Source: a virus
Taxonomy: Duplodnaviria; Heunggongvirae; Uroviricota; Caudoviricetes
Reading direction: 5' to 3' (one strand)
Virus record (IMG/VR): IMGVR_UViG_2740892444_000005
Coordinates: 1 to 10,687 of that record
Length of the DNA stretch: 10,687 nt
Part shown: positions 1 to 10,687 of the stretch, piece after piece
How positions within the stretch are numbered: position 1 is the stretch's first letter
How the letters are laid out: each line of letters begins with the position of its first letter
The notes under the pieces: generated by a model
Told to the model about the DNA's origin: nothing
Seen by the model: the letters and a program-made list of their open reading frames with translations, nothing else
Databases searched by the model: none
Made by a program: the position numbers and the translations under genes

Positions 1-16
1 TTACAAACTCACTACA

Positions 17-340
17 ATGCTGTATAATTCGCGAAGAGTGAATTTAGCTAGTGCATCCATAGGTTCAATTCCTATGCCTACAATTCTCATCACAGCTCTC
101 CTAATAGTCGCATTTATCCGTTACCTCAACGTGTTACTTAACGATTACGTCAGTAAGGAGAAGCCTATGAGTAAATTATTCTGCCATGTAGTACTATATG
201 TATCTTGTTTCATTGAAACTTTTTGGGCTGGGGTGATAAGTGTAGTAGCGGGTCTGATGACGGGCGGTGTCCAAATTATTTTGGCACTAGCTAAATCTTC
301 TCAATTTTTGTTTTTTTATTCAAAGCACTTACACCCATAA
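17..340 (+). CDS. small hydrophobic protein of unknown function (possible membrane peptide); 5' end unresolved
   Basis: The frame is open back to the window start (no in-frame stop in nt 2-16), so the gene may be 5'-partial. An alternative internal start ATG at 177 is preceded by AAGGAG (165-170). The product has hydrophobic stretches (ILITALLIVAF; GVISVVAGLMTGGVQIILALA). I recognise no family. Confidence 0.3.
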   Translation: MLYNSRRVNLASASIGSIPMPTILITALLIVAFIRYLNVLLNDYVSKEKPMSKLFCHVVLYVSCFIETFWAGVISVVAGLMTGGVQIILALAKSSQFLFFYSKHLHP

Positions 341-908
341 ATATTATTTAAATCAATAAACTAAGTCACTCTACGCATATTTTCCTTATCATGGTCTTTC
401 GTGTTTTTTGTACTCAACATGATCGTTTCCCCTTTCTTTAATACACAGTGTGATTAGCTACGTCTTCTGTTGGAGCGAAGTGGACGGGTTAATTGAGCTG
501 AATGTCAGCTATGAGCGAAGAGCGGACTTGAGACTATTGTAAATGAAAACCATATAATTTTAACCGGCAGAAACACATGAGTAATTTTAAGGCTAATTAG
601 TTATCTGGGAGATGAGGGGCAAAGCACGATATCGTACACCAATGGAATAACCTTATGATTAATATAAATATAAAAGACAGAAAGCCTTCCTCAAAATGGC
701 TTGAATCAGGTGCATCTGTCTGCGAAACGATTTTTTAGACGTTTTTATCGCTTTCAGTTCAGTTTTCCCCTCGAATCCAAGTGACAAAGCCGATTTAGTT
801 TTCACACATCCGTACAATGTGCATCCCTCGATGAGCCTTTTCAGGCAAAGTTACGGGGATGCTTGATTCATTTAAACTGAGTTAGTACAACTTAATTAAT
901 AATATCAT

Positions 909-1955
909 TTATGCTAGAGTTGAATATTCTCCATTTCCTCGGTCGGTGAGTGTTAATTCGCGGCCATTTTCTGTAAATGTAATGGCATCCAGCAGGCTTT
1001 TTCCTGTTACAGCTATACCATATCCAAGGTTATCAATCTTTGAACTGTCCTCAGATGATATTGGTATTTGTACAAGCATACCAACAACAAAGCCGTATTT
1101 GTTAATTATAGGGCCACCGCTATTCCCCCCCTTAACCCTAGCATTGAATAATAAAAAGTCTTGTGAATCTAAGTAAGAGTGACCAGAACCAACAATTCGC
1201 CCCTTTGACAGTCGGACAAACGAATTTATATGCGAAACGTCATATAACTTTAATGCATCAAATCCTGGAATGGGTGGAAATCCTATTGATAAAATTTCAT
1301 CCAGTACCGAGGCTTTGGTTGAGACCTTAAGTGGTTGAATATTATCTTCCTTCGGAATGGTTGTGAAAACTAAAGCGATATCAATACGTTCATCGTTAGA
1401 TACAAAGATTTTATGTATTGGTAAAGCCTCACCACCAGCTCTAAGTATCCTGATACTCTTCATGTCTTCAATAACATGTCTGGCTGTAAATATCGTGTGG
1501 TTATTCCCAACAATAAAACTAGTACCAAGATCATGTGAACCATCACTTTTTTCAACAACAACAGGTAAAACGGAAGGACTAAGGCGGTCTATGATTGACT
1601 CAAATCCATCAGCTATAAAATCATACTTTCCATATTTCGCATCTGATTCATTGAAATTCGGTGCGAAATAGCAACGGTCAAAAAGAGTATGTCCTGAAGA
1701 CAATTCCATTAAAATACCTTCAGTTGCTAGCTTTTCACAATTGCGTATTAACTTCATCATATCGAGAGTATTTTCCCACTCAGGTTTGAGACGGGTCAGG
1801 CTCTCAATTGTTTTTCTCTCTTTTACGTTATCGTTTTCCGGTTTGTCATAAAAATATTTCACTATTTCTGTTGGTGTTACATATGTTTTTTTTATAGTCA
1901 TTTTTGTACCCGCGATGACGTTATTCCATATATTTTTCTTTGTAGAAAATATCAC
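909..1955 (-). CDS. trypsin-like (S1/PA-clan) serine protease with uncharacterised ~135-aa N-terminal domain; no obvious signal peptide
   Basis: 348-aa ORF. The catalytic triad is in canonical order and context: His160 in TARHVIED, Asp192 in DIALVF, Ser279 in GGNSGGP (codons at nt ~1119-1121 on the minus strand). The N-terminus is not hydrophobic, so the protein is probably cytoplasmic. The start at 1955 is GTG; an alternative ATG lies at 1901 (M19). Neither has a strong Shine-Dalgarno sequence. The gene is AT-rich. Confidence 0.8.
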   Translation of the reverse strand: MIFSTKKNIWNNVIAGTKMTIKKTYVTPTEIVKYFYDKPENDNVKERKTIESLTRLKPEWENTLDMMKLIRNCEKLATEGILMELSSGHTLFDRCYFAPNFNESDAKYGKYDFIADGFESIIDRLSPSVLPVVVEKSDGSHDLGTSFIVGNNHTIFTARHVIEDMKSIRILRAGGEALPIHKIFVSNDERIDIALVFTTIPKEDNIQPLKVSTKASVLDEILSIGFPPIPGFDALKLYDVSHINSFVRLSKGRIVGSGHSYLDSQDFLLFNARVKGGNSGGPIINKYGFVVGMLVQIPISSEDSSKIDNLGYGIAVTGKSLLDAITFTENGRELTLTDRGNGEYSTLA

Positions 1956-2361
1956 TATTGCTGGTAAATGTTAAGTTCAGTGCTCGCACTAAAGCTGGAT
2001 GATCAACGTCGCCCTCGTATGGAAATCAGGTAAGATTCATGTCTACTTGGGGTCTAGGGTAGACAGCATAAAAACGTACGATAGCGTTCGATTGGCTCTC
2101 ACCCCCGCCTATAAACCATGAGGTTGATAGGGTAGTATCGTTAGGCAATAGTATACATGTAAGTATCCAACCTAATTGGTCTTGAGATTTCTAACTAACG
2201 TGTCGTTATGTCCGCTTTTGGCACATAGCAGTCCTAGAGACAGTGTCGTAAAGTCATGTAGGATCGGTGGGAGGAGGTAAAAATCCTCTCATACAAAAAT
2301 ACGTAAAATCGATAACGGCTGGAGATCATTCAATACTCGCCCTATCGAAAGCTCACCAGCC

Positions 2362-2397
2362 AGCCGCAACACGTTCTTACATATGACGTGTCTGCGG
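2362..2397. repeat. imperfect-palindrome hairpin element, copy A (paired with copy B at 4832-4867)
   Basis: AGCCGCAACACGTTCTTACATATGACGTGTCTGCGG matches 4832-4867 at 30 of 36 positions. It folds as CCGCA-ACACGTT / AACGTG-TGCGG with a 1-nt bulge. Weaker similarity extends into both flanks (ACCA..GCC upstream, TC.AA.C downstream). Confidence 0.6.
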
Positions 2398-2410
2398 TTT
2401 CAACTCCACC

Positions 2411-2447
2411 AGCCCACCAATCATGATTGGGCTTTTTCGTTTTTCTT
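2411..2447 (+). terminator. putative intrinsic terminator (GC-rich hairpin followed by T-tracts)
   Basis: AGCCCACCAATCATGATTGGGCT (stem AGCCCA/TGGGCT) is followed directly by TTTTTCGTTTTTCTT. The T-run follows the hairpin only on the plus strand. No plus-strand ORF lies upstream of it. Confidence 0.55.
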
Positions 2448-2574
2448 CACCTGCAAGCAAACCGTTGTATCATGGCGGAATGAAGATGAGCTAGGAATAA
2501 TCTTACGAATCAGCTCAATATTCATATAAAAACATTTCGAACTTTGGTGTACAAAACTACATAGGGATAACTTT

Positions 2575-3777
2575 ATGTCTCTTCGTTTCAGACAAACCTT
2601 TACTCTATTTCCTGGCGTTCGACTCAACATTGGCAAGCGTGGAATAAGTGCAAGCATTGGCGTGCCTGGCGCAACTGTCAATGTTGGTAAAAAAGGGGTT
2701 AGAGCAACTGTCGGATTACCGGGCACAGGCTTATCTTATACTACACCTACCTTGCCCTATGATGATGGATACTCAGTTACCAATCCATTAAATCCAGCCC
2801 CTACAGAACCTCATTTGGGGTCTGGGTCATCTCCAGAAAATACACCATCGAACGCTAAAATATATATGCCTGTAGCTGGCATGAATGAAATATCCAGCGC
2901 TTCGGTAGAAGTCCTTACAAGTACCTCCCTTTTACCTTTACGAGATTTGATTGCTAAAGCACGAGAACAAAGAGCAGAAATAAAAGCAGATCTTCAAGAG
3001 GCTCTTGCCGAAGAATCAAAACAAAAAAGCGAGCTGGCTCGACGCAAATCAAGTCTATTCCGTTGGTTTTACAAACGACGCATCGCAGAACTTGAGACAC
3101 TACTCCCCCTAACCCAAGCTGAGATATCTCGCCTAGTTTCATGGGAAGACAGCACAAAAATAGCCATAACATTCGAGAGCAGTGATGCTTCACAGCGCGC
3201 ATATGCAGCGATGGTCCATGCATTTGATATGTTAAAATCGAGTGTCAAAAAATGGGATATTACTGCAGATAAAGCTACAGACCAGTTTGCTGAAAGAACA
3301 TTAGCAACCCGGTCTGTTAATCGTCACCCAGTTACCTTTGATTTTAGTTCAACGGATCTCATTCAATTTACAGGGCGTGCGATGAGGTTTGAAAATGTGA
3401 ATGGAGACGATATTTTGCTTTATCCTGGAGTTGCAGTCATACCACGAGCTGATGGAGCATTCGCTCTGATTGATTTACGCGAATTACAAATTAATTCAGA
3501 ATATCTAAGATTCCATGAGGAAGAAGGTGTTCCCAGTGACTCACGCATAGATGGTTATACATGGGCGAAAACGAATAAGAATGGCTCACCAGACCGTCGT
3601 TTTAAAGATAACTACCAAATCCCTATTTGCATTTATGGAAATATTACTTTCCATTCTCAAACAGGGGTAACTGAAGAATATATGGTATCAAATGCAGATG
3701 CCGCGCACGCCTTTGCTGAGGCAGTAAAACGTTATCAGATTTCACTCACAGAAACAGAAGCGTTGGTACAGGCCTGA
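2575..3777 (+). CDS. DUF4236-type protein (N-terminal Gly/Lys/Arg-rich DUF4236-like module, P/S/T-rich linker, predicted coiled coil, uncharacterised C-terminal domain)
   Basis: 400-aa ORF with ATG at 2575 and RBS AGGGA at 2563-2567. The N-terminus RFRQTFTLFPGVRLNIGKRGISASIGVPGATVNVGKKGVRATVGLPGTGLSY matches my recollection of the DUF4236 signature. A low-complexity linker (PTLPYDDGYSVTNPLNPAPTEPHLGSGSSPENTPSN) and a charged helical segment (AKAREQRAEIKADLQEALAEESKQKSELARRK) follow. I cannot assign the C-terminal ~200 aa. The gene is AT-rich. Confidence 0.85.
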   Translation: MSLRFRQTFTLFPGVRLNIGKRGISASIGVPGATVNVGKKGVRATVGLPGTGLSYTTPTLPYDDGYSVTNPLNPAPTEPHLGSGSSPENTPSNAKIYMPVAGMNEISSASVEVLTSTSLLPLRDLIAKAREQRAEIKADLQEALAEESKQKSELARRKSSLFRWFYKRRIAELETLLPLTQAEISRLVSWEDSTKIAITFESSDASQRAYAAMVHAFDMLKSSVKKWDITADKATDQFAERTLATRSVNRHPVTFDFSSTDLIQFTGRAMRFENVNGDDILLYPGVAVIPRADGAFALIDLRELQINSEYLRFHEEEGVPSDSRIDGYTWAKTNKNGSPDRRFKDNYQIPICIYGNITFHSQTGVTEEYMVSNADAAHAFAEAVKRYQISLTETEALVQA

Positions 3778-3836
3778 TTTATCGCCGATATGGGGACGAA
3801 TCGTAGGTTAAAACCCCCTAGAACAAAAAAAACCTT

Positions 3837-3864
3837 AAGAACCAGACTATTATGGCTGGTTCTT
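3837..3864. other. perfect 9-bp-stem hairpin between the two cassette genes (possible terminator/attenuator)
   Basis: AAGAACCAG-(10 nt loop)-CTGGTTCTT. It lies 60 nt after the stop of the 2575-3777 gene and is preceded by an A8 tract (3823-3830). That gives a T8 run after the hairpin on the minus strand, with a 4-nt spacer. There is no clean T-run after it on the plus strand, so orientation and function are ambiguous. Confidence 0.3.
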
Positions 3865-3881
3865 GTACGGAGGATTTGTTA

Positions 3882-3908
3882 TTGTACAACTCTTCTATCT
3901 GGTATATT
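3882..3908 (+). promoter_or_regulatory. candidate sigma70 promoter with extended -10 for the DUF2971 gene
   Basis: -35-like TTGTAC (3882-3887), a 15-bp spacer (short), TG at 3900-3901 and -10 TATATT (3903-3908), i.e. TGgTATATT. It lies ~80 nt upstream of the ATG at 3991. Motif match only. Confidence 0.3.
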
Positions 3909-3990
3909 TACGGATAGAACTGTTCAGGCTACTCAATCCTTTTTAAGTACAAATGAACAGATAGAAATAGTTATATTGCAAGGAGCTATC

Positions 3991-4779
3991 ATGCACACTG
4001 AGTATATATGGCGATACCTTGACATAGAGAAATTCTCTATGTTACTCGAACAAAATGCTTTATTTTTTTGCTCAGCAAAAAATTTTGAAGATCCGTTCGA
4101 AGGTGAATTTGCTTGGGGACATACTGGCTATAAAAAATTCATTGAGACACAGGAAAAACTATGCGCTACTTATGGTGCCGGCATGGACTTAGATCCTTTC
4201 ATGGCATTCAATTTAAAGACACTTAAGGAAATAAGCGAGAGGACATATATAAGTTGCTGGCATTGTAACGAACATGAATCTGAAGCTATGTGGAAGCTGT
4301 ATTGTAAAAACCCCGCTAAAGGCGTTGTCATAAAATCAAAGAAAAAAAACCTCCAAAGCCAACTTGAAAATAATAATCTAAACAAACTACAATTAAAACA
4401 CGTAAAATACGTCAAAAATTTCTGGATAAAACAATACAATCCAGAATCAGATGTATTCTTTAACAAGAGACCATCTTTCGAATACGAAAAAGAGTTTAGA
4501 GCTATTTTTCAAGAGAATACCTTTAACACTCCACCTGTAAAGGGAAAACTAGTCCCTGTATCTCTTAATAATCTGTTGGAAGAAATAAGGATTTCACCTT
4601 TCGCAGATAAGGATTTCAAAAATGAAGTTTTACAAATTTCAAAAAAACATGGACTAGATCTGAAAGTCAAAAACTCTGAAATTGAAATGCATCCCATCAT
4701 GCATGTTGAGGAAGAAATAATTGCAGAAGGCCCCAATTGGTATCAGTCAAAAATCAGATTGGCAATACGTGATGCTTAA
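3991..4779 (+). CDS. DUF2971-type protein
   Basis: 262-aa product starting at the ATG at 3991, which is preceded by AGGAG (3981-3985). The ORF-track start at 3790 is rejected because it has no RBS and the extension spans the hairpin. The family hallmarks as I recall them are present: YIWRYLDIEKFSMLLEQNALFFCSAKNFEDPFEGEF, CWHCNEHESEAMWKLYCKNPAKGVVIK and FEYEKEFRAIF. The gene is AT-rich. Confidence 0.85.
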   Translation: MHTEYIWRYLDIEKFSMLLEQNALFFCSAKNFEDPFEGEFAWGHTGYKKFIETQEKLCATYGAGMDLDPFMAFNLKTLKEISERTYISCWHCNEHESEAMWKLYCKNPAKGVVIKSKKKNLQSQLENNNLNKLQLKHVKYVKNFWIKQYNPESDVFFNKRPSFEYEKEFRAIFQENTFNTPPVKGKLVPVSLNNLLEEIRISPFADKDFKNEVLQISKKHGLDLKVKNSEIEMHPIMHVEEEIIAEGPNWYQSKIRLAIRDA

Positions 4780-4831
4780 TCTTATATTGAAGTTTTTTAT
4801 GTCTCCTGCTGAAACTAGCTAAAATTTACCA

Positions 4832-4867
4832 AGCCGCAGCACGTTATTGCATACAACGTGTATGCGG
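4832..4867. repeat. imperfect-palindrome hairpin element, copy B; probable bidirectional terminator between convergent DUF2971 gene and tfa
   Basis: AGCCGCAGCACGTTATTGCATACAACGTGTATGCGG has the same fold as copy A. It lies 15 nt from the tfa stop (4883-4885) and ~50 nt after the DUF2971 stop. Confidence 0.6.
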
Positions 4868-4882
4868 CGTATCTCAAAACGA

Positions 4883-5467
4883 TTACTCCATAACAGGGAC
4901 AGCAGGCCACTCAATATCAGGTGCAGTTGATGTATCAACACGGTTCAGCAACACCCGATACTTCTTCCAGGCTTCCAGCAACGAGTTTTCTTCCTCCGTT
5001 GCGATCTCCAGATCTACAGCATCCTGAAGTGGCGCAATATGCTCACTGGCTACCTGCATCAGGCTGTTTTTTGTTTCTTCCGCCTCCCGGATCCGGAACA
5101 GTTTTTCTGCTTCCGTATCCTTCACCCAGGCTGTGCCGTTCCACTTCTGAAACTCCCCTTCCGGCGATAACCAGGTAACATTTTCCGGTAACGGACCGAG
5201 TTCAGAAATAAATAACGCGTCGCCGGAAGCCACGTCATAAACCGTTTTACCCCGATGGTCTTCAACGAGATGCCACGATGCCTCATCACTGTTGAAAACA
5301 GCCACAAAGCCAGCAGGAATATCTGGTGGTGCAATATCGGTACTGTTTGCTGGCAGACCTGTATGAGGCGGAATATATGCGTCACCTTCACCAATAAATT
5401 CATTAGTCCCGACCAGCAGATTATAAATTTTTATGGTCCGTGGTTGTTCACTCATTCTGAATGCCAT
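4883..5467 (-). CDS. tfa: tail fiber assembly protein (lambda Tfa-like)
   Basis: 194-aa product, [18 protein letters not shown]...EWPAVPVME, is near-identical in length and sequence to lambda Tfa as I recall it. Its start overlaps the upstream stf stop (TAATG on the minus strand at 5465-5469). Confidence 0.9.
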
Positions 5468-6678
5468 TATGCAAGCCTCACAATATAGTTAAATGCGATG
5501 TTTTTGACGGTGTTTTCCGCATTACCAGCAGCGTTAACGGTGATGGTGTGTCCATGTGAACCAATCGCAACGGAGTGCGTATGAGCACCAATACCGACAG
5601 TATGCGCGTGTGCACCTGCAGATGCTGCTGTGCCGGACAGTGAGTGGCTATGATTACCATCTGTACTGGTATTAGCTAACCACCCCGTAGACATACCTAC
5701 TGAGCCTTGTACACCCCAGGTATTTTGACCTGAGCTTGTATAACCATATTGATAAGTATCTTTAAAAACACTGGGGTTAAATCGACGGCCATCTCTATGG
5801 CTGTGATTACCAGCTGCATTCGTGCTGCCACTTAAACTATGAGTATGCGCACCAGTGTTATTCGTGGATTTAGTGCCGTAATCAAACGATGATGTGGTTT
5901 TCGTACCCAAATCCGTACTGGATACGCTGGCGCTGTGGGTGTGCGATTTAATGCCGTCCTGTTCCTGAGACAATACGGCACGACCACTGGCGGGCTTGCC
6001 CTTAATCGTCCAGCCACGCATATCAGGGATCACGCCTGACGGATAAGCGGCTGCAAGTTTCGGGTAAGCAGATTTGTCAAAAGTCTGCCCCTGCATCAGG
6101 GCATAACCAGACGGAACGGTATCTGATGGCCACGGGATTGGTGCGCCGACTGGGTAGCTTTCTGGTGGAAGATTTTTCGAGGTATAAACTTCTGCCCAGT
6201 CTTCCTCAAAACCATAACCGTCTCTTGAAGAACGGTAGAACAGACCACCATTTCTGTAATGCGCCTTCATCTGCAGGGTCCGGCAACTTCCGACTCCGGT
6301 ATAGAAGTTAACCAGAATATAGCTGTCGCCAGAGCGGGTGACATTGTAAGCGCCTGATTCGGCATTCCAGGGAACGCCACCATCCGCATCGGCATATGTA
6401 TCCGTTGCCCTTCTGGCAAAAGCAGCCACATGCGCGGCGGTTATCCAGATTAACCAAATCCTTGTTGTTGGGGAATAACTAGGTCCACCTCGCCTGATGT
6501 GGCTAAAAGCAGGCACATAACAGCTAAGTATTTTCAACCAGAGAGAATCCTTAGCGTTGTGGTGAATGCGGCTCAGCGCACGCGGGTTAAGGTTGAGGCT
6601 GACAGTCGACCTTCTGTGGATACCCACCCGCCTGGTGTGCAACCTTCGCCAGGCACCGGGAGGCACCCGGCACCACAA
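5467..6678 (-). pseudogene. stf: side tail fiber protein remnant (C-terminal portion only, 5'-truncated)
   Basis: The C-terminal ~320 aa match the lambda Stf / StfR-type C-terminus as I recall it ([31 protein letters not shown]...[25 protein letters not shown]...[27 protein letters not shown]), including the periodic His-rich motifs (GAHTHS, GNHSHS, GAHAHT, GSHGHT). The N-terminal ~85 aa of the ORF (nt ~6420-6678) read as non-protein-like sequence, and no plausible start or upstream stf body is present. Full-length Stf is far longer. Confidence 0.8.
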
Positions 6679-6701
6679 CTTTATGCTGTGTGTAGTCCTG
6701 G

Positions 6702-6747
6702 CGGTACCAGTTTGTACCCTTGCTTCCGGCTGGTACCGTCCTTTTTT
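6702..6747 (+). terminator. putative intrinsic terminator (9-bp perfect stem, T6 tract)
   Basis: CGGTACCAG (6702-6710) and CTGGTACCG (6730-6738) form a perfect inverted repeat, each arm containing GGTACC, with a 19-nt loop. It is followed by TCC then TTTTTT (6742-6747). The T-run is on the plus strand only. The loop is unusually long. Confidence 0.4.
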
Positions 6748-6748
6748 G

Positions 6749-6835
6749 CAAAACAGAGAAGAGCATCACCGGACGACGGGCTCATAACCCAATCCATCCG
6801 GGCGGCTGCCACCGCAGGTGTTCTTCTCTGTTTTG
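6749..6835. repeat. long inverted repeat / extended hairpin (14-bp perfect arms, ~59-nt spacer) upstream of the yfdP-like gene
   Basis: CAAAACAGAGAAGA (6749-6762) pairs with TCTTCTCTGTTTTG (6822-6835). The pairing extends imperfectly inward (ATCACC.. with ..GGTG). It sits immediately after the 6702-6747 hairpin and ~50 nt upstream of the yfdP-like start. Confidence 0.4.
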
Positions 6836-6884
6836 TGGAGAAACCAACCGACCTTGCAGGGTCGATATGATGAGGAGCAGCAAA

Positions 6885-7247
6885 ATGGCTAGCGAACGCA
6901 GTACTGATGTGCAGGCATTTATCGGGGAGCTGGACGGCGGCGTATTTGAAACCAAAATCGGCGCAGTTCTCAGTGAAGTCGCTTCCGGTGTGATGAACAC
7001 GAAAACCAAAGGGAAGGTCTCACTCAATCTGGAAATCGAACCGTTTGATGAGAACCGTGTGAAAATCAAACACAAACTCTCATATGTTCGCCCAACTAAC
7101 CGCGGGAAAATTTCTGAAGAAGACACCACCGAAACGCCGATGTATGTCAATCGCGGTGGTCGCCTGACTATTCTGCAGGAAGACCAGGGACAATTACTGA
7201 CTCTTGCCGGTGAGCCTGACGGAAAACTCCGCGCAGCAGGTCATTAA
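6885..7247 (+). CDS. yfdP: YfdP-like prophage protein (unknown function)
   Basis: 120-aa product starting MASERSTDVQAFIGELDGG, from the ATG at 6885 preceded by GAGGAG (6872-6877). Alternative in-frame ATGs at 6867 and 6870 would add 5-6 aa. Length and sequence match my recollection of K-12 CPS-53 YfdP; the symbol is from memory. Confidence 0.65.
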   Translation: MASERSTDVQAFIGELDGGVFETKIGAVLSEVASGVMNTKTKGKVSLNLEIEPFDENRVKIKHKLSYVRPTNRGKISEEDTTETPMYVNRGGRLTILQEDQGQLLTLAGEPDGKLRAAGH

Positions 7248-7312
7248 TATCGTTCTTAATTAACTGATTATTTATCTCATCACTGAATATCTTAATATAG
7301 TGAGGACTTATT

Positions 7313-8137
7313 ATGTCTCAGAACTTAGACGCAACCGCAATTAATCAAATCCATGCCCTTATTTCTGCTCAGGGTGTTAATGAAATTATCAGTAAGATTG
7401 GTGCCGATGCTGTGGCATTGCCTGAGAATTTCCGCATTCATGATCTGGAAAAATTTAATTTAAATCGCTTCCGTTTCCGTGGTGCGCTTTCCACTGCCAG
7501 CATCGATGACTTTACCCGTTATTCTAAAGATCTTGCAGATGAAGGCACCCGCTGCTTTATCGATGCTGATAATATGCGTGCCGTCAGTGTGCTTAACCTG
7601 GGTACTATTGATGAACCAGGTCACGCAGATAACACCGCCACTCTCAAACTGAAAAAGACAGCACCGTTCTCTGCCCTGTTGTCTGTTAACGGCGAGCGTA
7701 ACGCCCAGAAATCACTGGCAGAATGGATTGAAGACTGGGCAGACTACCTTGTGGGCTTTGATGCTAATGGTGACGCCATTCAGGCAACAAAAGCGGCTGC
7801 GGCAATCCGTAAAATCACGATTGAAGCAAACCAGACCGCTGATTTTGAAGATAATGACTTCAGCGGCAAACGCTCCCTGATGGAATCTGTCGAAGCGAAG
7901 ACCAAAGACATTATGCCAGTGGCATTTGAATTTAAATGCGTTCCGTTTGAAGGTCTGAAAGAACGTCCGTTTAAATTACGCCTCAGCATTATCACTGGCG
8001 ATCGTCCTGTACTGGTTCTGCGCATTATTCAGCTGGAAGCGGTGCAGGAAGATATGGCTAACGAATTTCGTGATCTGCTTGTTGAGAAATTCAAAGACAG
8101 CAAAGTAGAAACCTTTATTGGTACTTTCACCGCCTGA
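7313..8137 (+). CDS. yfdQ: YfdQ-like prophage protein (DUF2303 family)
   Basis: 274-aa product starting [26 protein letters not shown], with RBS GAGGA at 7303-7307. It matches my recollection of K-12 YfdQ (274 aa). Confidence 0.8.
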
Positions 8138-8149
8138 TTTCATTACTGC

Positions 8150-8171
8150 AAATGCCCCTGTGGGGGCATTT
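8150..8171 (+). other. hairpin after yfdQ-like gene (weak candidate terminator/attenuator)
   Basis: AAATGCCCC-TGTG-GGGGCATTT: a 9-bp perfect stem with a 4-nt loop, 13 nt after the yfdQ stop. The T residues lie inside the 3' arm rather than forming a free U-tract, so termination is uncertain. Confidence 0.25.
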
Positions 8172-8264
8172 ATGGAAACGTAATTAACTCAATAATCACC
8201 GAATGGTGAGGGCTTCCTTTTACCCAAACTCAGCGCGGTGCAGCGCATATACGTGGAGAACAAA

Positions 8265-8801
8265 ATGTCATTTATTAAAACTTTTTCCGGGAAGCATTTT
8301 TATTATGACAAGATAAATAAAGACGACATCGTGATTAACGATATCGCGGTTTCCCTTTCAAATATCTGCCGCTTTGCCGGTCATCTTTCTCACTTCTACA
8401 GTGTCGCCCAACATGCGGTGCTTTGCAGCCAGCTGGTGCCGCAGGAATTTGCTTTTGAAGCGTTAATGCATGATGCAACAGAAGCGTATTGCCAGGACAT
8501 CCCCGCACCACTGAAACGCCTTCTTCCTGACTATAAACGGATGGAAGAAAAAATAGATGCAGTAATCCGTGAGAAATACGGGTTACCTCCTGTTATGAGC
8601 ACGCCAGTGAAATATGCCGATCTCATTATGCTGGCAACCGAACGCCGTGATCTCGGGCTTGATGATGGCTCTTTATGGCCTGTACTGGAAGGTATCCCGG
8701 CAACAGAGATGTTCAAAGTTATTCCACTGGCACCGGGCCATGCCTACGGGATGTTTATGGAACGCTTCAACGAGTTATCGGAATTACGCAAATGTGCATA
8801 A
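8265..8801 (+). CDS. yfdR: HD-domain phosphohydrolase (YfdR-like)
   Basis: 178-aa product from the ATG at 8265 (RBS GGAGAA at 8255-8260; the ORF-track start at 8238 is rejected). It has HD-superfamily motifs (HLSHFYSVAQHAVL; ALMHDATEAYCQD). It matches my recollection of K-12 YfdR. Confidence 0.85.
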   Translation: MSFIKTFSGKHFYYDKINKDDIVINDIAVSLSNICRFAGHLSHFYSVAQHAVLCSQLVPQEFAFEALMHDATEAYCQDIPAPLKRLLPDYKRMEEKIDAVIREKYGLPPVMSTPVKYADLIMLATERRDLGLDDGSLWPVLEGIPATEMFKVIPLAPGHAYGMFMERFNELSELRKCA

Positions 8802-9670
8802 CTCATGTAGTTAGTTTTTCTGGCGGGAGAACATCCGCATATCTTGTTCACCTGATGGAAGAACAAAGAAAGGCTGGCAATAACGTCTGCTACATCTTTA
8901 TGGATACCGGTTGCGAACATCCGCTGACATACCGCTTTATCCGGGAGGTTGTGAAGTTCTGGGACATACCACTAACTGTGTTACAGGTCGATATAAATCC
9001 TGAGCTTGGGCAGCCAAATGGTTATACAGAATGGGAGCCAAAGGATATTCAGACACGAATGCCGGTGCTTAAACCGTTTATGGACATGGTTAAAAAGTAC
9101 GGCACGCCATACATCGGCGGCGCGTTCTGTACTGACAGGCTAAAACTCATCCCTTTCACGAAATACTGCGATAACCATTTCGGACGAGGTAATTACATCA
9201 CATGGCTGGGTATTCGTGCAGACGAACCCCGTAGGCTGAAACCGAAATCGGGCATCCGGTATCTTGCCGAGCTGTCAGATTTTGATAAGTCGGATGTTAT
9301 CCGGTGGTGGCGAAAACAACCTTTTGATTTGCAAATCCCGGAGCATCTCGGGAACTGTGTTTTCTGCATCAAAAAGTCAACGCAAAAGCTGGGGCTTGCA
9401 TGTAAAGACGAACCAGGTCTGATGCGAGTTTTTAATGAGCTGGTTACAGGCAAACACGTCAGGGATGGTCATCGCAGAACAGGTAAAGACATTATGTACC
9501 GTGGTCACCTGACGCTTGACGGAATTGCCAGAATGTCTGCCAACAGCGACTACAGAAATTTGTATCAGGCAATGGTACAGGCCAGGCGATTCGATACCGG
9601 CTCGTGTTCAGAGTCATGTGAAATCTGGGGTGATCAATTGGAATTGGAATTCGAAGAGGTAGGGGTATGA
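8792..9670 (+). CDS. PAPS-reductase-like / PP-loop ATP-pyrophosphatase family protein (phage type)
   Basis: 292-aa product from the ATG at 8792, which overlaps the yfdR stop (ATGTGCATAA). The N-terminal PP-loop motif SFSGGRTS is present. Relatives are common in lambdoid prophage early regions. The ORF-track start at 8675 is rejected because it would overlap yfdR by ~40 codons. Confidence 0.8.
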   Translation: MCITHVVSFSGGRTSAYLVHLMEEQRKAGNNVCYIFMDTGCEHPLTYRFIREVVKFWDIPLTVLQVDINPELGQPNGYTEWEPKDIQTRMPVLKPFMDMVKKYGTPYIGGAFCTDRLKLIPFTKYCDNHFGRGNYITWLGIRADEPRRLKPKSGIRYLAELSDFDKSDVIRWWRKQPFDLQIPEHLGNCVFCIKKSTQKLGLACKDEPGLMRVFNELVTGKHVRDGHRRTGKDIMYRGHLTLDGIARMSANSDYRNLYQAMVQARRFDTGSCSESCEIWGDQLELEFEEVGV

Positions 9671-10011
9671 CAACCGAAATCAGCTACCATGCACTGCTTG
9701 AGCGCGCACGGAATAAAGTGCAGAGCATTGAGTTCGCCTTAACACAGAGTGCATTCGCTGAGATTCGCGCTGAGCTTGAAAATGATTTAGAACTGGCACG
9801 GATTGCACTGGCATCTCTGGAAGTTGAGCCAGATGAACGCGCAGCCTATGAATTATTTATGGAAAAGCGTTTCGGTAAAACAGTCGATCGTCGGAGAGCA
9901 AAAAACGGCGATAACGAATACATGGCATGGGATATGACTCTCGGTTGGATCGTCTGGCAGCAACGAGCTGGTATCCATTTTTCAACAATGTCACAGCAAG
10001 AGGTGAAATAA
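9667..10011 (+). CDS. hypothetical prophage early-region protein
   Basis: 114-aa ORF. Its ATG overlaps the upstream stop (ATGA at 9667-9670) and its stop overlaps the xis start (TAATG at 10009-10013). Acidic, helical-looking sequence. No family recognised. Confidence 0.65.
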   Translation: MTTEISYHALLERARNKVQSIEFALTQSAFAEIRAELENDLELARIALASLEVEPDERAAYELFMEKRFGKTVDRRRAKNGDNEYMAWDMTLGWIVWQQRAGIHFSTMSQQEVK

Positions 10012-10361
10012 TGGAGCCATACAGCCTCACACTCGATGAGGCCTGTCATTTTCTCAAGATATCCAGACCGACTGCCATTAACTGGATACGCACAGGGCGT
10101 CTTCAGGCAACACGCAAAGATCCCACTAAGAATAAATCTCCTTACCTCACAACACGACAAGCCTGCATTGCGGCTCTTCAGTCTCCGCTGCATACTGTCC
10201 AGGTGAGCGCGGGTGATGGCATAACAGAGGAAAGAAAATGTCACTCTTCCGCAGAGGTGAAATATGGTACGCCAGTTTCACATTGCCGAACGGTAAAAGA
10301 TTTAAACAGTCTCTTGGAACAAAGGACAAAAGGCAGGCGACAGAACTCCATGACAAGCTAA
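10011..10361 (+). CDS. xis: excisionase (P22 Xis-like)
   Basis: 116-aa product [40 protein letters not shown], with RBS GAGGTGA at 10002-10008. It matches my recollection of P22-type Xis in length and sequence. It sits immediately upstream of, and overlapping, the integrase start. Confidence 0.75.
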
Positions 10362-10687
10362 AGGCTGAAGCATGGCGGGTCAGCAAACTTGGTGAAATAC
10401 CTGATATAACGTTCGAGGAAGCGTGTGTCAGGTGGCTTGAAGAGAAAGCACATAAAAAATCACTGGACGATGACAAAAGCCGGATCGGATTCTGGCTTCA
10501 ACATTTCGCAGGAATGCAACTAAGAGACATTACTGAATCAAAAATTTATTCAGCAATGCAGAAAATGACGAACCGGCGTCATGAGGAAAACTGGAAACTC
10601 AGGGCAGAAGCATGCAGAAAAAAAGGGAAACCTGTTCCAGAATACACGCCAAAACCAGCGTCCGTTGCAACGAAGGCTACGCACTGA
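10238..10687 (+). CDS. int: tyrosine integrase, N-terminal (arm-binding) region only; frame ends at TGA 10685-10687
   Basis: [46 protein letters not shown] is the N-terminus of P22 / CPS-53 IntS-type integrases as I recall them. RBS AGAGGA at 10226-10231. The frame terminates after 149 aa, whereas family members are ~385 aa. No catalytic domain is visible in this window. Confidence 0.8.

Follow-up and report, generated by a model that had tools for sequence, protein, structure and literature searches.

A terminator and a three-way-junction RNA with an initiator tRNA-like arm in the early-left leader of an SfV/SfIV-like prophage remnant

A stretch of caudoviricete DNA (IMG/VR record IMGVR_UViG_2740892444_000005, positions 1 to 10,687; hereafter the window, meaning the whole 10,687 nt) contains two inverted repeats just upstream of yfdP, the first gene of a prophage early-left operon, which a preliminary description had singled out from the sequence as a dense block of secondary structure. 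Analysis of this block and its relatives showed that it comprises two consecutive + strand elements: hairpin 1, which is very probably an intrinsic terminator, and hairpin 2, a three-way-junction RNA with one arm that carries the anticodon stem-loop sequence of the Escherichia coli initiator tRNA. Overall, the block is probably a composite in which a terminator gate is followed by a functional structured RNA that is made only on read-through in the early-left leader. Hairpin 1 is already known in substance, through the small RNA (sRNA) sRNA-17 and its relationship to the STnc100 family, and hairpin 2 appears to be undescribed in Rfam 15 and the searchable literature.

Structure and genomic position of the block

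Both inverted repeats are present as first described. A 9 bp perfect repeat (CGGTACCAG/CTGGTACCG, 6702-6710 and 6730-6738) precedes a T6 tract, and a 14 bp perfect repeat (CAAAACAGAGAAGA/TCTTCTCTGTTTTG, 6749-6762 and 6822-6835) has a spacer of 59 nt and can be extended to 24 nt at 83% complementarity. RNAfold analysis of the + strand of 6690-6850 gave a free energy of -71.6 kcal/mol (z = -5.8), and none of 200 shuffled sequences was as stable. A perfect inverted repeat of 14 bp was not found in any of 1,000 shuffles (largest 11 bp) and is unique among the 161 nt stretches of the 10.7 kb window. The 9 bp repeat is unexceptional alone, as repeats of at least 9 bp occur in approximately 4% of shuffles, and it gains meaning from its extension to a 13-pair stem, the U-tract that follows and the conservation of the structure in relatives. 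No promoter was found within the block by scanning.

The block lies between the cI repressor gene and yfdP in the phages SfV, SfIV, PhiR49_1, Kati, mEp460, ST64B and phiNP. In ST64B, mEp460 and SfV, a promoter resembling the early-left promoter (PL) and its operators directly follow cI, and are themselves followed by 600-700 nt without a credible gene; this placement makes the block part of the leader of the early-left operon (yfdP-yfdQ-yfdR...xis-int). The 551 nt stretch 6450-7000, which covers the block and the start of yfdP, is matched in 2,860 of 5,426 complete E. coli genomes, and also in Shigella, Salmonella, Citrobacter, Klebsiella and other phages. The leader of ST64B is 77% identical to that of the window and its yfdQ-yfdR region 66% identical, while its yfdP gives no blastn match at all. 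A search for related loci based on YfdP returned only 100% identical relatives and added no diversity. The block is absent from the CPS-53 prophage of E. coli K-12, where a deletion ends just before yfdP, and K-12 data are therefore uninformative about it.

Hairpin 1 and the sRNA-17 counterpart

Hairpin 1 has the form of an intrinsic terminator, with a GC-rich stem of 13 pairs followed by C and then U6; it is missed by a simple terminator scanner since its 15 nt loop exceeds the 8 nt limit of that program. Among 69 unique upstream variants, drawn from phages and prophages of many Enterobacterales, the stems differ in sequence (for example GGCGGTACCAG, GGCGGCATC, GGGCGGTAACA, TGCCCATC and others) and the hairpin and a tract of T5-7 are always kept. 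Transcript 3′ ends would accordingly be expected at approximately 6745-6747, close to the position first suggested. The preliminary description had offered a terminator/antiterminator as one possibility; the terminator half holds, whereas no alternative pairing between the two hairpins was found that would make an antiterminator.

The 3′ end of an RNA at hairpin 1 is known from a near-identical homologue. sRNA-17 is a 193 nt RNA defined by 5′/3′ rapid amplification of cDNA ends and Northern blotting, and is encoded by a mEp460-like prophage of E. coli K1 RS218 (PMC7719688). The published sequence (supplementary alignment) maps to mEp460 (locus L003, 4855-5047), spans GUUGUGGUG to GGUACCGCUCUUUU, and ends after the fourth U of the hairpin 1 U-tract in this mEp460-type homologue. 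The window counterpart occupies the same place upstream of yfdP, is of similar length, and has the same hairpin 1 and U-tract and the same 9 bp closing stem (GUUGUGGUG/CACCACAAC, 6556-6564 paired with 6671-6679). However, the body between closing stem and terminator differs in the window, which is of the SfV/SfIV type: identity to mEp460 is 97% from 6699 on, and upstream of this mosaic breakpoint only the architecture and the closing stem are common to both.

The Rfam STnc100 model (RF02076) matched 6526-6749 end to end (40.3 bits, E = 2e-7), with the terminator of the model falling on hairpin 1. This score is below the gathering score of 47, and the window sequence is therefore a relative of the family and not a curated member. 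STnc100, which a 2026 preprint relates to the PasD sRNAs, and the window RNA are both phage-borne and share a multibranched fold, a UGGUG/CACCA-type closing stem, a conserved CACCGGGAGGCACCCGGCACCA hairpin and a 3′ terminator. They differ in context, as canonical STnc100 is located after stx2B in the late region of 933W (PMC12370729), where the match scores 207.7 bits and no three-way junction follows it.

Deletion of sRNA-17 raised yfdP from 0.5 to 47 reads (approximately 95-fold) and increased yfdR as well (PMC7719688). In the authors' view sRNA-17 acts in trans and is transcribed from a promoter of its own under ArcA control; a role as a terminator or gate is not discussed and the downstream three-way junction is not mentioned (PMC7719688). 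We read the rise of yfdP and yfdR as a cis effect of terminator loss, for which hairpin 1 offers a simple explanation.

A match of the Rfam DicF model to 6687-6741 (E about 1) was not significant, and the string UGGCGGUAnCAGUUU is common to hairpin 1 and the DicF terminator. DicF lies within an early-left-type operon of a lambdoid prophage.

Hairpin 2 is a conserved three-way-junction RNA

In BLAST comparisons with Salmonella, Citrobacter and other phages, no part of the leader was as well conserved as 6743-6848, and a 50 nt core of hairpin 2 also matched Klebsiella phages at another place. The preliminary description had proposed folding and covariation analysis across relatives. In a MAFFT alignment of 30 diverse sequences, 98.1% of the cells at paired columns retained pairing and nine pairs had changed on both sides, with 39 such double-change cells. 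None of 500 shuffles reached the percentage paired, the number of double-change cells or the covariation score, and one reached nine pairs; sliding the structure by 1-3 columns reduced pairing to 41-54%. The view of the block as a regulatory or structural RNA element is borne out by these compensatory changes and the conserved structure. What had been seen as an extended simple hairpin is, however, a three-way junction of a closing helix (P1) and two arms (P2 and P3), with the tRNA-like arm P2 unseen in the initial reading.

With a covariance model derived from this alignment, the window scored 109 bits in the + orientation against 27 bits in the - orientation, and conservation extends to several G-U pairs; these two observations indicate that hairpin 2 is an RNA read from the + strand. 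We consider it very likely that hairpin 2 is a functional structured RNA of that strand. In the read-through RNA the base of P1 is predicted to form between the U-tract of hairpin 1 and GGAGAA. The 24 predicted pairs of P1 would form a near-continuous duplex of the length cut by RNase III (approximately 20 bp or more) in the window type, a property that the family as a whole does not share.

No family of Rfam 15 covers hairpin 2 at gathering or E-value thresholds, and searches of the literature for initiator tRNA mimics, tRNA-like leaders or decoys in phages yielded nothing on it. Rfam matches to MIR1094, Hairpin ribozyme and ftsZ-DE were at chance level. A hammerhead was rejected, as CUGAUGA is present in the Klebsiella-type relatives and is unconserved in other types, and strings in P1 resembling boxA/boxC and the GcvB seed are base-paired and unconserved across types. 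A UGCUCUU-like string in the P1 3′ strand of relatives is likewise base-paired, and is absent from short-stem types. A lambda-type nut site, with boxA (CGCUCUUA) and a boxB with a 5 nt loop, was not found in the window sequence.

The leader is non-coding

The open reading frames (ORFs) that cross the block, initially described as junk, are not coding. Among 38 close relatives, yfdP shows a clear coding signature, with 2/3/29 variable sites at codon positions 1/2/3, whereas the corresponding counts for 6566-6884 are 13/18/16 when read in frame with yfdP and 16/13/18 in the frame of the ORF starting at 6566. The same close relatives also differ by a 1 nt change in the length of the U-tract and by an 8 nt indel, both of which shift the frame. 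The distance from the hairpin 2 core to its 3′ anchor is 60-64 or 79-87 nt in 63 unique variants, and in 20 of these the length difference, which reflects P3, is not a multiple of three. Relatives do not conserve the frames and do keep the palindromes, with compensatory changes in the stems. Several records carry annotated ORFs across the block, and two frames stay open over approximately 100 nt in most variants; a simple open-frame test is uninformative here, as short GC-rich stretches stay open anyway. The annotated 226 aa ORF of SfIV and Kati, which would be an N-terminal extension of YfdP, is due to a U-tract one base shorter. With no third-position bias in the leader, there is a negligible probability that this extension, or a separate small gene such as the 'frameshifted hypothetical protein' of RefSeq, is a real product.

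Hypothetical ORFs also overlap the structured leader in mEp460 (gp36 and gp37; L003, 4560-4928 and 4970-5113) and SfIV (p34, p35 and p36; locus L005, 3032-3729 and 3617-4297). The overlap is mostly on the opposite strand, and these regions are probably leader RNA and not genes.

An initiator tRNA-like arm and its relatives in other contexts

The 14 nt tip of P2 (CGGGCUCAUAACCC), with its three G-C pairs and the loop CUCAUAA, matches at every position the anticodon stem-loop of E. coli K-12 initiator tRNA, encoded by metY (gtCGGGCTCATAACCCgaag). Since the first scans required the core pattern, elements were collected again with an anchor in the 3′ tail, outside the core. The exact core was present in 177 of 214 anchor hits, and approximately 17 of the other 37 were unrelated chance matches in a coding gene, leaving approximately 197 genuine elements. 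The approximately 20 genuine core variants carry changes at the loop positions equivalent to tRNA positions 32, 33, 37 and 38, or one weakened G-C pair, and all but one keep CAU.

Hairpin 2 lacks a D arm and a canonical T loop, and the window form has no acceptor end. An anticodon-arm mimic in an mRNA leader has a precedent in the thrS operator. Unlike a thrS-type operator, whose mimic adjoins or overlaps the ribosome binding site, hairpin 2 has its loop approximately 85-100 nt ahead of the yfdP starts, with variable spacing in relatives and, in some, an intervening terminator. Hairpin 2 is a new form of tRNA-like or anticodon-arm-mimic RNA.

Relatives with the same P2 arm were found in other genomic contexts. 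The Klebsiella type is 71-72 nt long, has a closing stem of 6-7 bp, and lies downstream of the antiterminator gene Q, where 5 nt (GAUAA) always separate it from the CCA end of a preceding phage tRNA; it ends in GGCC-R-CCA in 13 of 13 variants. In type 3 and at locus L210 the element immediately follows a terminator that lies between a Q-like gene and the holin and lysis genes, the type 3 element being approximately 50 nt upstream of the holin start. P1 measures 5-7 bp in the Klebsiella type and type 3 taken together. What all these contexts have in common is that the element directly follows a site of 3′ end formation (a gate terminator or a tRNA) and heads an operon whose expression relies on antitermination.

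A pattern scan of genome contigs returned 85 hits, of which approximately 70 are expected by chance from a pattern with 17 specified bases, and only the Enterobacterales hits and one Acidobacteriaceae locus supported by the model were used. In this locus (a metagenome-assembled genome, L176, about 2545-2633), an ACGGGCUCAUAACCCAAUC arm lies in a hairpin with a 9 bp stem of unrelated sequence (32 bits), which suggests that the P2 motif reaches beyond Enterobacterales.

In a further leader (locus L098), a tRNA-model match of 40 bits at 1800-1925 has canonical D and T loops and a 68 nt insert replacing the anticodon arm. It lies upstream of an sRNA-17-like module, and two lone T-arm-like hairpins follow it (1950-2050).

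Proposed mechanism and comparison with known systems

From the structures, strand, non-coding status, conservation and genomic contexts observed directly, we infer a gating role, a processing step and a host partner as follows. Hairpin 1 would end a leader RNA of approximately 190 nt, gating or insulating the yfdP-int operon unless polymerase reads through, and hairpin 2 would be transcribed only on read-through because it begins at the terminator U-tract. Hairpin 2 would then be cut from the leader, as a tRNA-like module, by host RNA-processing enzymes: RNase III acting on P1 in the long-stem window form, and tRNA-processing enzymes acting on the short-stem array form that ends in R-CCA. Such cleavage would define the 5′ end of the operon mRNA and liberate a small RNA, which would show its initiator-like anticodon arm to a host factor. 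Candidate roles for such an RNA would be that of a decoy for toxins cleaving the initiator tRNA anticodon loop, such as the Shigella and Salmonella PIN-domain toxins VapC/MvpT, or of a ligand for methionyl-tRNA synthetase, initiation factor 3 or the 30S P site.

These steps carry decreasing confidence. Excision of a tRNA-like module is a tentative proposal, and a function that depends on a factor recognising initiator tRNA is more doubtful still. The complete scenario, in which a phage-made mimic of the initiator anticodon arm is released past a lytic gate terminator and engages a host factor that reads initiator tRNA, is speculative and rather unlikely; if true, it would represent an RNA-based counter-defence or translation-takeover device in many enterobacterial temperate phages. 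The initiator-arm copy, the position behind the gate and the relatives in tRNA arrays nevertheless provide concrete, testable hypotheses on leader processing in temperate phages, possibly extending to interference with initiator tRNA biology or with tRNA-targeting toxins.

Parts of this model have precedents. In the lambda PR'-6S RNA-tR' gate a short terminated leader RNA precedes an operon whose expression requires read-through, and the lambda N leader is processed by RNase III. The block likewise places a terminated leader, and then a long leader duplex, ahead of the first early-left gene, but there is no sequence similarity to lambda and the block has no boxA/boxB nut site or N gene. The T4 species 1 and 2 RNAs are small stable RNAs that are co-processed in phage tRNA clusters, and the tRNA-like mascRNA is cut from MALAT1. 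The Klebsiella type resembles these in being tRNA-sized, 5 nt from a tRNA 3′ end and terminated by R-CCA, all as expected of an RNA matured by tRNA-processing enzymes. The resemblance is one of size, position and 3′ end; the window form, in contrast, has a long closing helix and no acceptor-like end.

Several observations weigh against the model in whole or in part. Hairpin 2 is known here from its sequence and predicted structure, and the basal P1 pairs between U-tract and GGAGAA lack covariation support because they never vary. P1 measures from 6 to approximately 26 bp across the family, which excludes RNase III as a general route of processing. With regard to tRNA mimicry, the apparent invariance of the core is partly circular, since the pattern by which most loci were retrieved contains the core, and the anchor sample corrects this in part; the loop does vary, for example with U37 in ST64B, which strict mimicry would not predict. 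The Rfam tRNA model RF00005 gave no match up to E = 10 in 6450-6950 or in locus L008 3995-4170, and ARAGORN detected no tRNA either in the window or in the Klebsiella-type element. P1 of the window form is followed by ACC AAC and not by a CCA end. The sRNA-17 mutant was made with a pKD3 cassette (PMC7719688), and the rise of yfdP could therefore stem from read-through from the cassette instead of terminator loss, an effect in cis either way. Finally, the native promoter is deleted in the window prophage, so the elements there may have fallen silent, as remnants of a family functional in intact phages.

Alternative explanations

Hairpin 2 could instead stay in the mRNA and act in cis on the first gene of the operon, as an operator of translation or stability, through access to the ribosome binding site, 5′ protection or a standby site. 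Its location 22-40 nt upstream of the yfdP starts, and that of type 3 close upstream of the holin start, would suit this role, and the loop strings CUCAU/UCAUA are complementary to AUGAG/UAUGA at 6866-6875. The latter match is no better than chance, since every start codon is complementary to CAU. Spacing to the following start codon is unconserved, the L210 and Klebsiella-type elements are separated from the next gene by a terminator and 130-190 nt, and the Klebsiella type lies within a tRNA array and not in a 5′ untranslated region. The variable spacing and intervening terminators weaken this explanation, and we regard it as unlikely.

A processive antitermination RNA, comparable to HK022 put or the Bacillus EAR element and acting on downstream early-left terminators, is considerably less probable. 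Like hairpin 2, HK022 put is a structured RNA encoded in cis in an early leader, in a lambdoid phage that has no N gene, and no N-like protein is annotated in the SfV, mEp460 and ST64B early-left regions examined. Hairpin 2 also heads long operons, precedes a terminator in L210 and the Klebsiella type, and in the window is followed by a weak terminator-like hairpin after yfdQ. However, put is a two-stem, V-shaped RNA of approximately 70 nt that lies just downstream of its promoter and upstream of terminators, whereas hairpin 2 is a 103 nt three-way junction directly after one. In the late leaders Q is encoded just upstream and would make an RNA device redundant; it is this co-occurrence, and the position behind the gate terminator, that makes antitermination improbable. 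In addition, mEp460 has a single copy of the element and none in its rightward operon, and the Klebsiella type has the appearance of a tRNA-array member.

We give little credence to the idea that hairpin 2 is the functionless remnant of a decaying tRNA gene. In favour of it, tRNA genes are frequent in phages, the anticodon arm is shared with initiator tRNA, and relatives lie in tRNA arrays, but pairing has been kept by compensatory changes across many lineages, hairpin 2 is the part of the leader best conserved between genera, and the same P2 arm recurs in three contexts.

It is also highly improbable that the palindromes act in DNA, as an operator, recombination site or cruciform, or that they mark a deletion scar; of these, a protein-binding palindrome and a scar had been put forward in the preliminary description. 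GGTACC palindromes occur in hairpin 1, the loop TTGTACCCT resembles half of the SfV OR operator TTGTACCCTATCGGTACAA, and the window is a degraded prophage. Nevertheless, G-U pairs that are conserved would become A-C mismatches if the opposite strand were read, the model scores are strand-asymmetric, the U-tract is on one side only, and the same hairpin 1 is found in mEp460, a phage of different immunity type. The comparison with intact relatives that had been suggested places the deletion junction at 6438/6439, approximately 260 nt upstream of the hairpins, and functional phages (SfV, SfIV, mEp460 and PhiR49_1) carry the block intact.

The preferred reading therefore remains a terminator gate followed by a read-through-only structured RNA, the features of which are listed in Table 1.

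Table 1 Features of the early-left leader and adjoining genes in the window
Feature	Position	Strand	Basis and remarks
Tail-fibre gene remnant, truncated	5467..6438	-	Pfam domains; homology to intact early-left regions from 6439
Early-left (PL) leader, surviving 5′ part	6439..6555	+	blastn against intact phages
sRNA-17 counterpart, STnc100-related	6556..6747 (end about 6745)	+	Multibranched fold ending at terminator
Terminator hairpin (hairpin 1)	6700..6740	+	RNAfold; stem 6700-6712 with 6728-6740, 15 nt loop
Terminator U-tract	6742..6747	+	Sequence; T5-T7 in all variants
Three-way-junction RNA (hairpin 2), 103 nt	6743..6845	+	RNAalifold and pair counts, covariance model
P1	6743-6767 with 6817-6842	+	Closing helix, ~24 predicted bp
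P2	6769-6780 with 6788-6801	+	Arm with initiator-like tip
P2 tip CGGGCUCAUAACCC	6777..6790	+	GGG/CCC stem, 7 nt loop CUCAUAA 6781-6787
P3	6802-6805 with 6812-6815	+	Arm length varies ~14 to ~45 nt
Small hairpin CGACC-UUGCAG-GGUCG	6850..6865	+	Sequence and scan; just 5′ of yfdP starts
yfdP, first early-left operon gene	6885..7247	+	RefSeq annotation of identical prophage; coding-type variation

The remainder of the window

The window is a degraded SfV/SfIV-like prophage adjoining the thrW/proA integration site, from which the immunity region and the native PL promoter/operator have been deleted. A 403 aa minus-strand ORF has matches to the Pfam domains gp37_C, Collar and Phage_fiber only from residue 98, and runs to 6678, amounting to approximately 240 nt of antisense read-through into the leader. 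The tail-fibre remnant was taken to end at 6438 because blastn homology to the early-left regions of intact phages (SfV, SfIV, PhiR49_1, Kati and one E. coli prophage) begins at 6439. At the other end of the leader, the place of the small hairpin at 6850-6865 is taken in ST64B and L098 by a hairpin of other sequence, and yfdP has alternative in-frame starts at 6867 and 6870.

The first approximately 100 nt of the PL transcript are conserved between SfV and ST64B (ACAGGCAGGACGCCCACGAAGUAGCCGCC...CAGGAUGA; locus L002, 4368-4500, and locus L009, 2420-2540), and CAGGAUGA is also present in the HK022 putL region (locus L219, about 720-640, minus strand). This segment could be a put-like antiterminator letting polymerase past hairpin 1.

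The island formed by window positions 1-5096 and 8902-10683 (compared with locus L004), with genes for an S1 peptidase, DUF4236 and DUF2971 proteins, is also present in several complete E. coli genomes. These islands have undergone a further deletion of window positions 5097-8901, in which all of the block and yfdP-yfdR are lost. In comparison with SfV, SfIV and PhiR49_1, window positions 8799-9802 are a mosaic replacement, and a PAPS-reductase-family gene (8675-9670) is located where these phages have orf29-like genes. The terminator-like hairpin just after yfdQ (8140-8170) has the form AUGCCCC-UGU-GGGGCAU followed by UUAU. An Rfam IS009 match of 227 bits (4926-5124, - strand) lies within a tail-fibre assembly gene (4883-5467, Pfam Caudo_TAP), and this 'sRNA' family may merely be a conserved piece of the Caudo_TAP coding gene. 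Adjacent matches to C4 antisense RNA and IsrK were found in SfV (L002, 2226-2414), mEp460 (L003, 2323-2511) and ST64B (L009, 187-375), upstream of an antirepressor-like gene, and this pair looks like a P1-type second immunity module.

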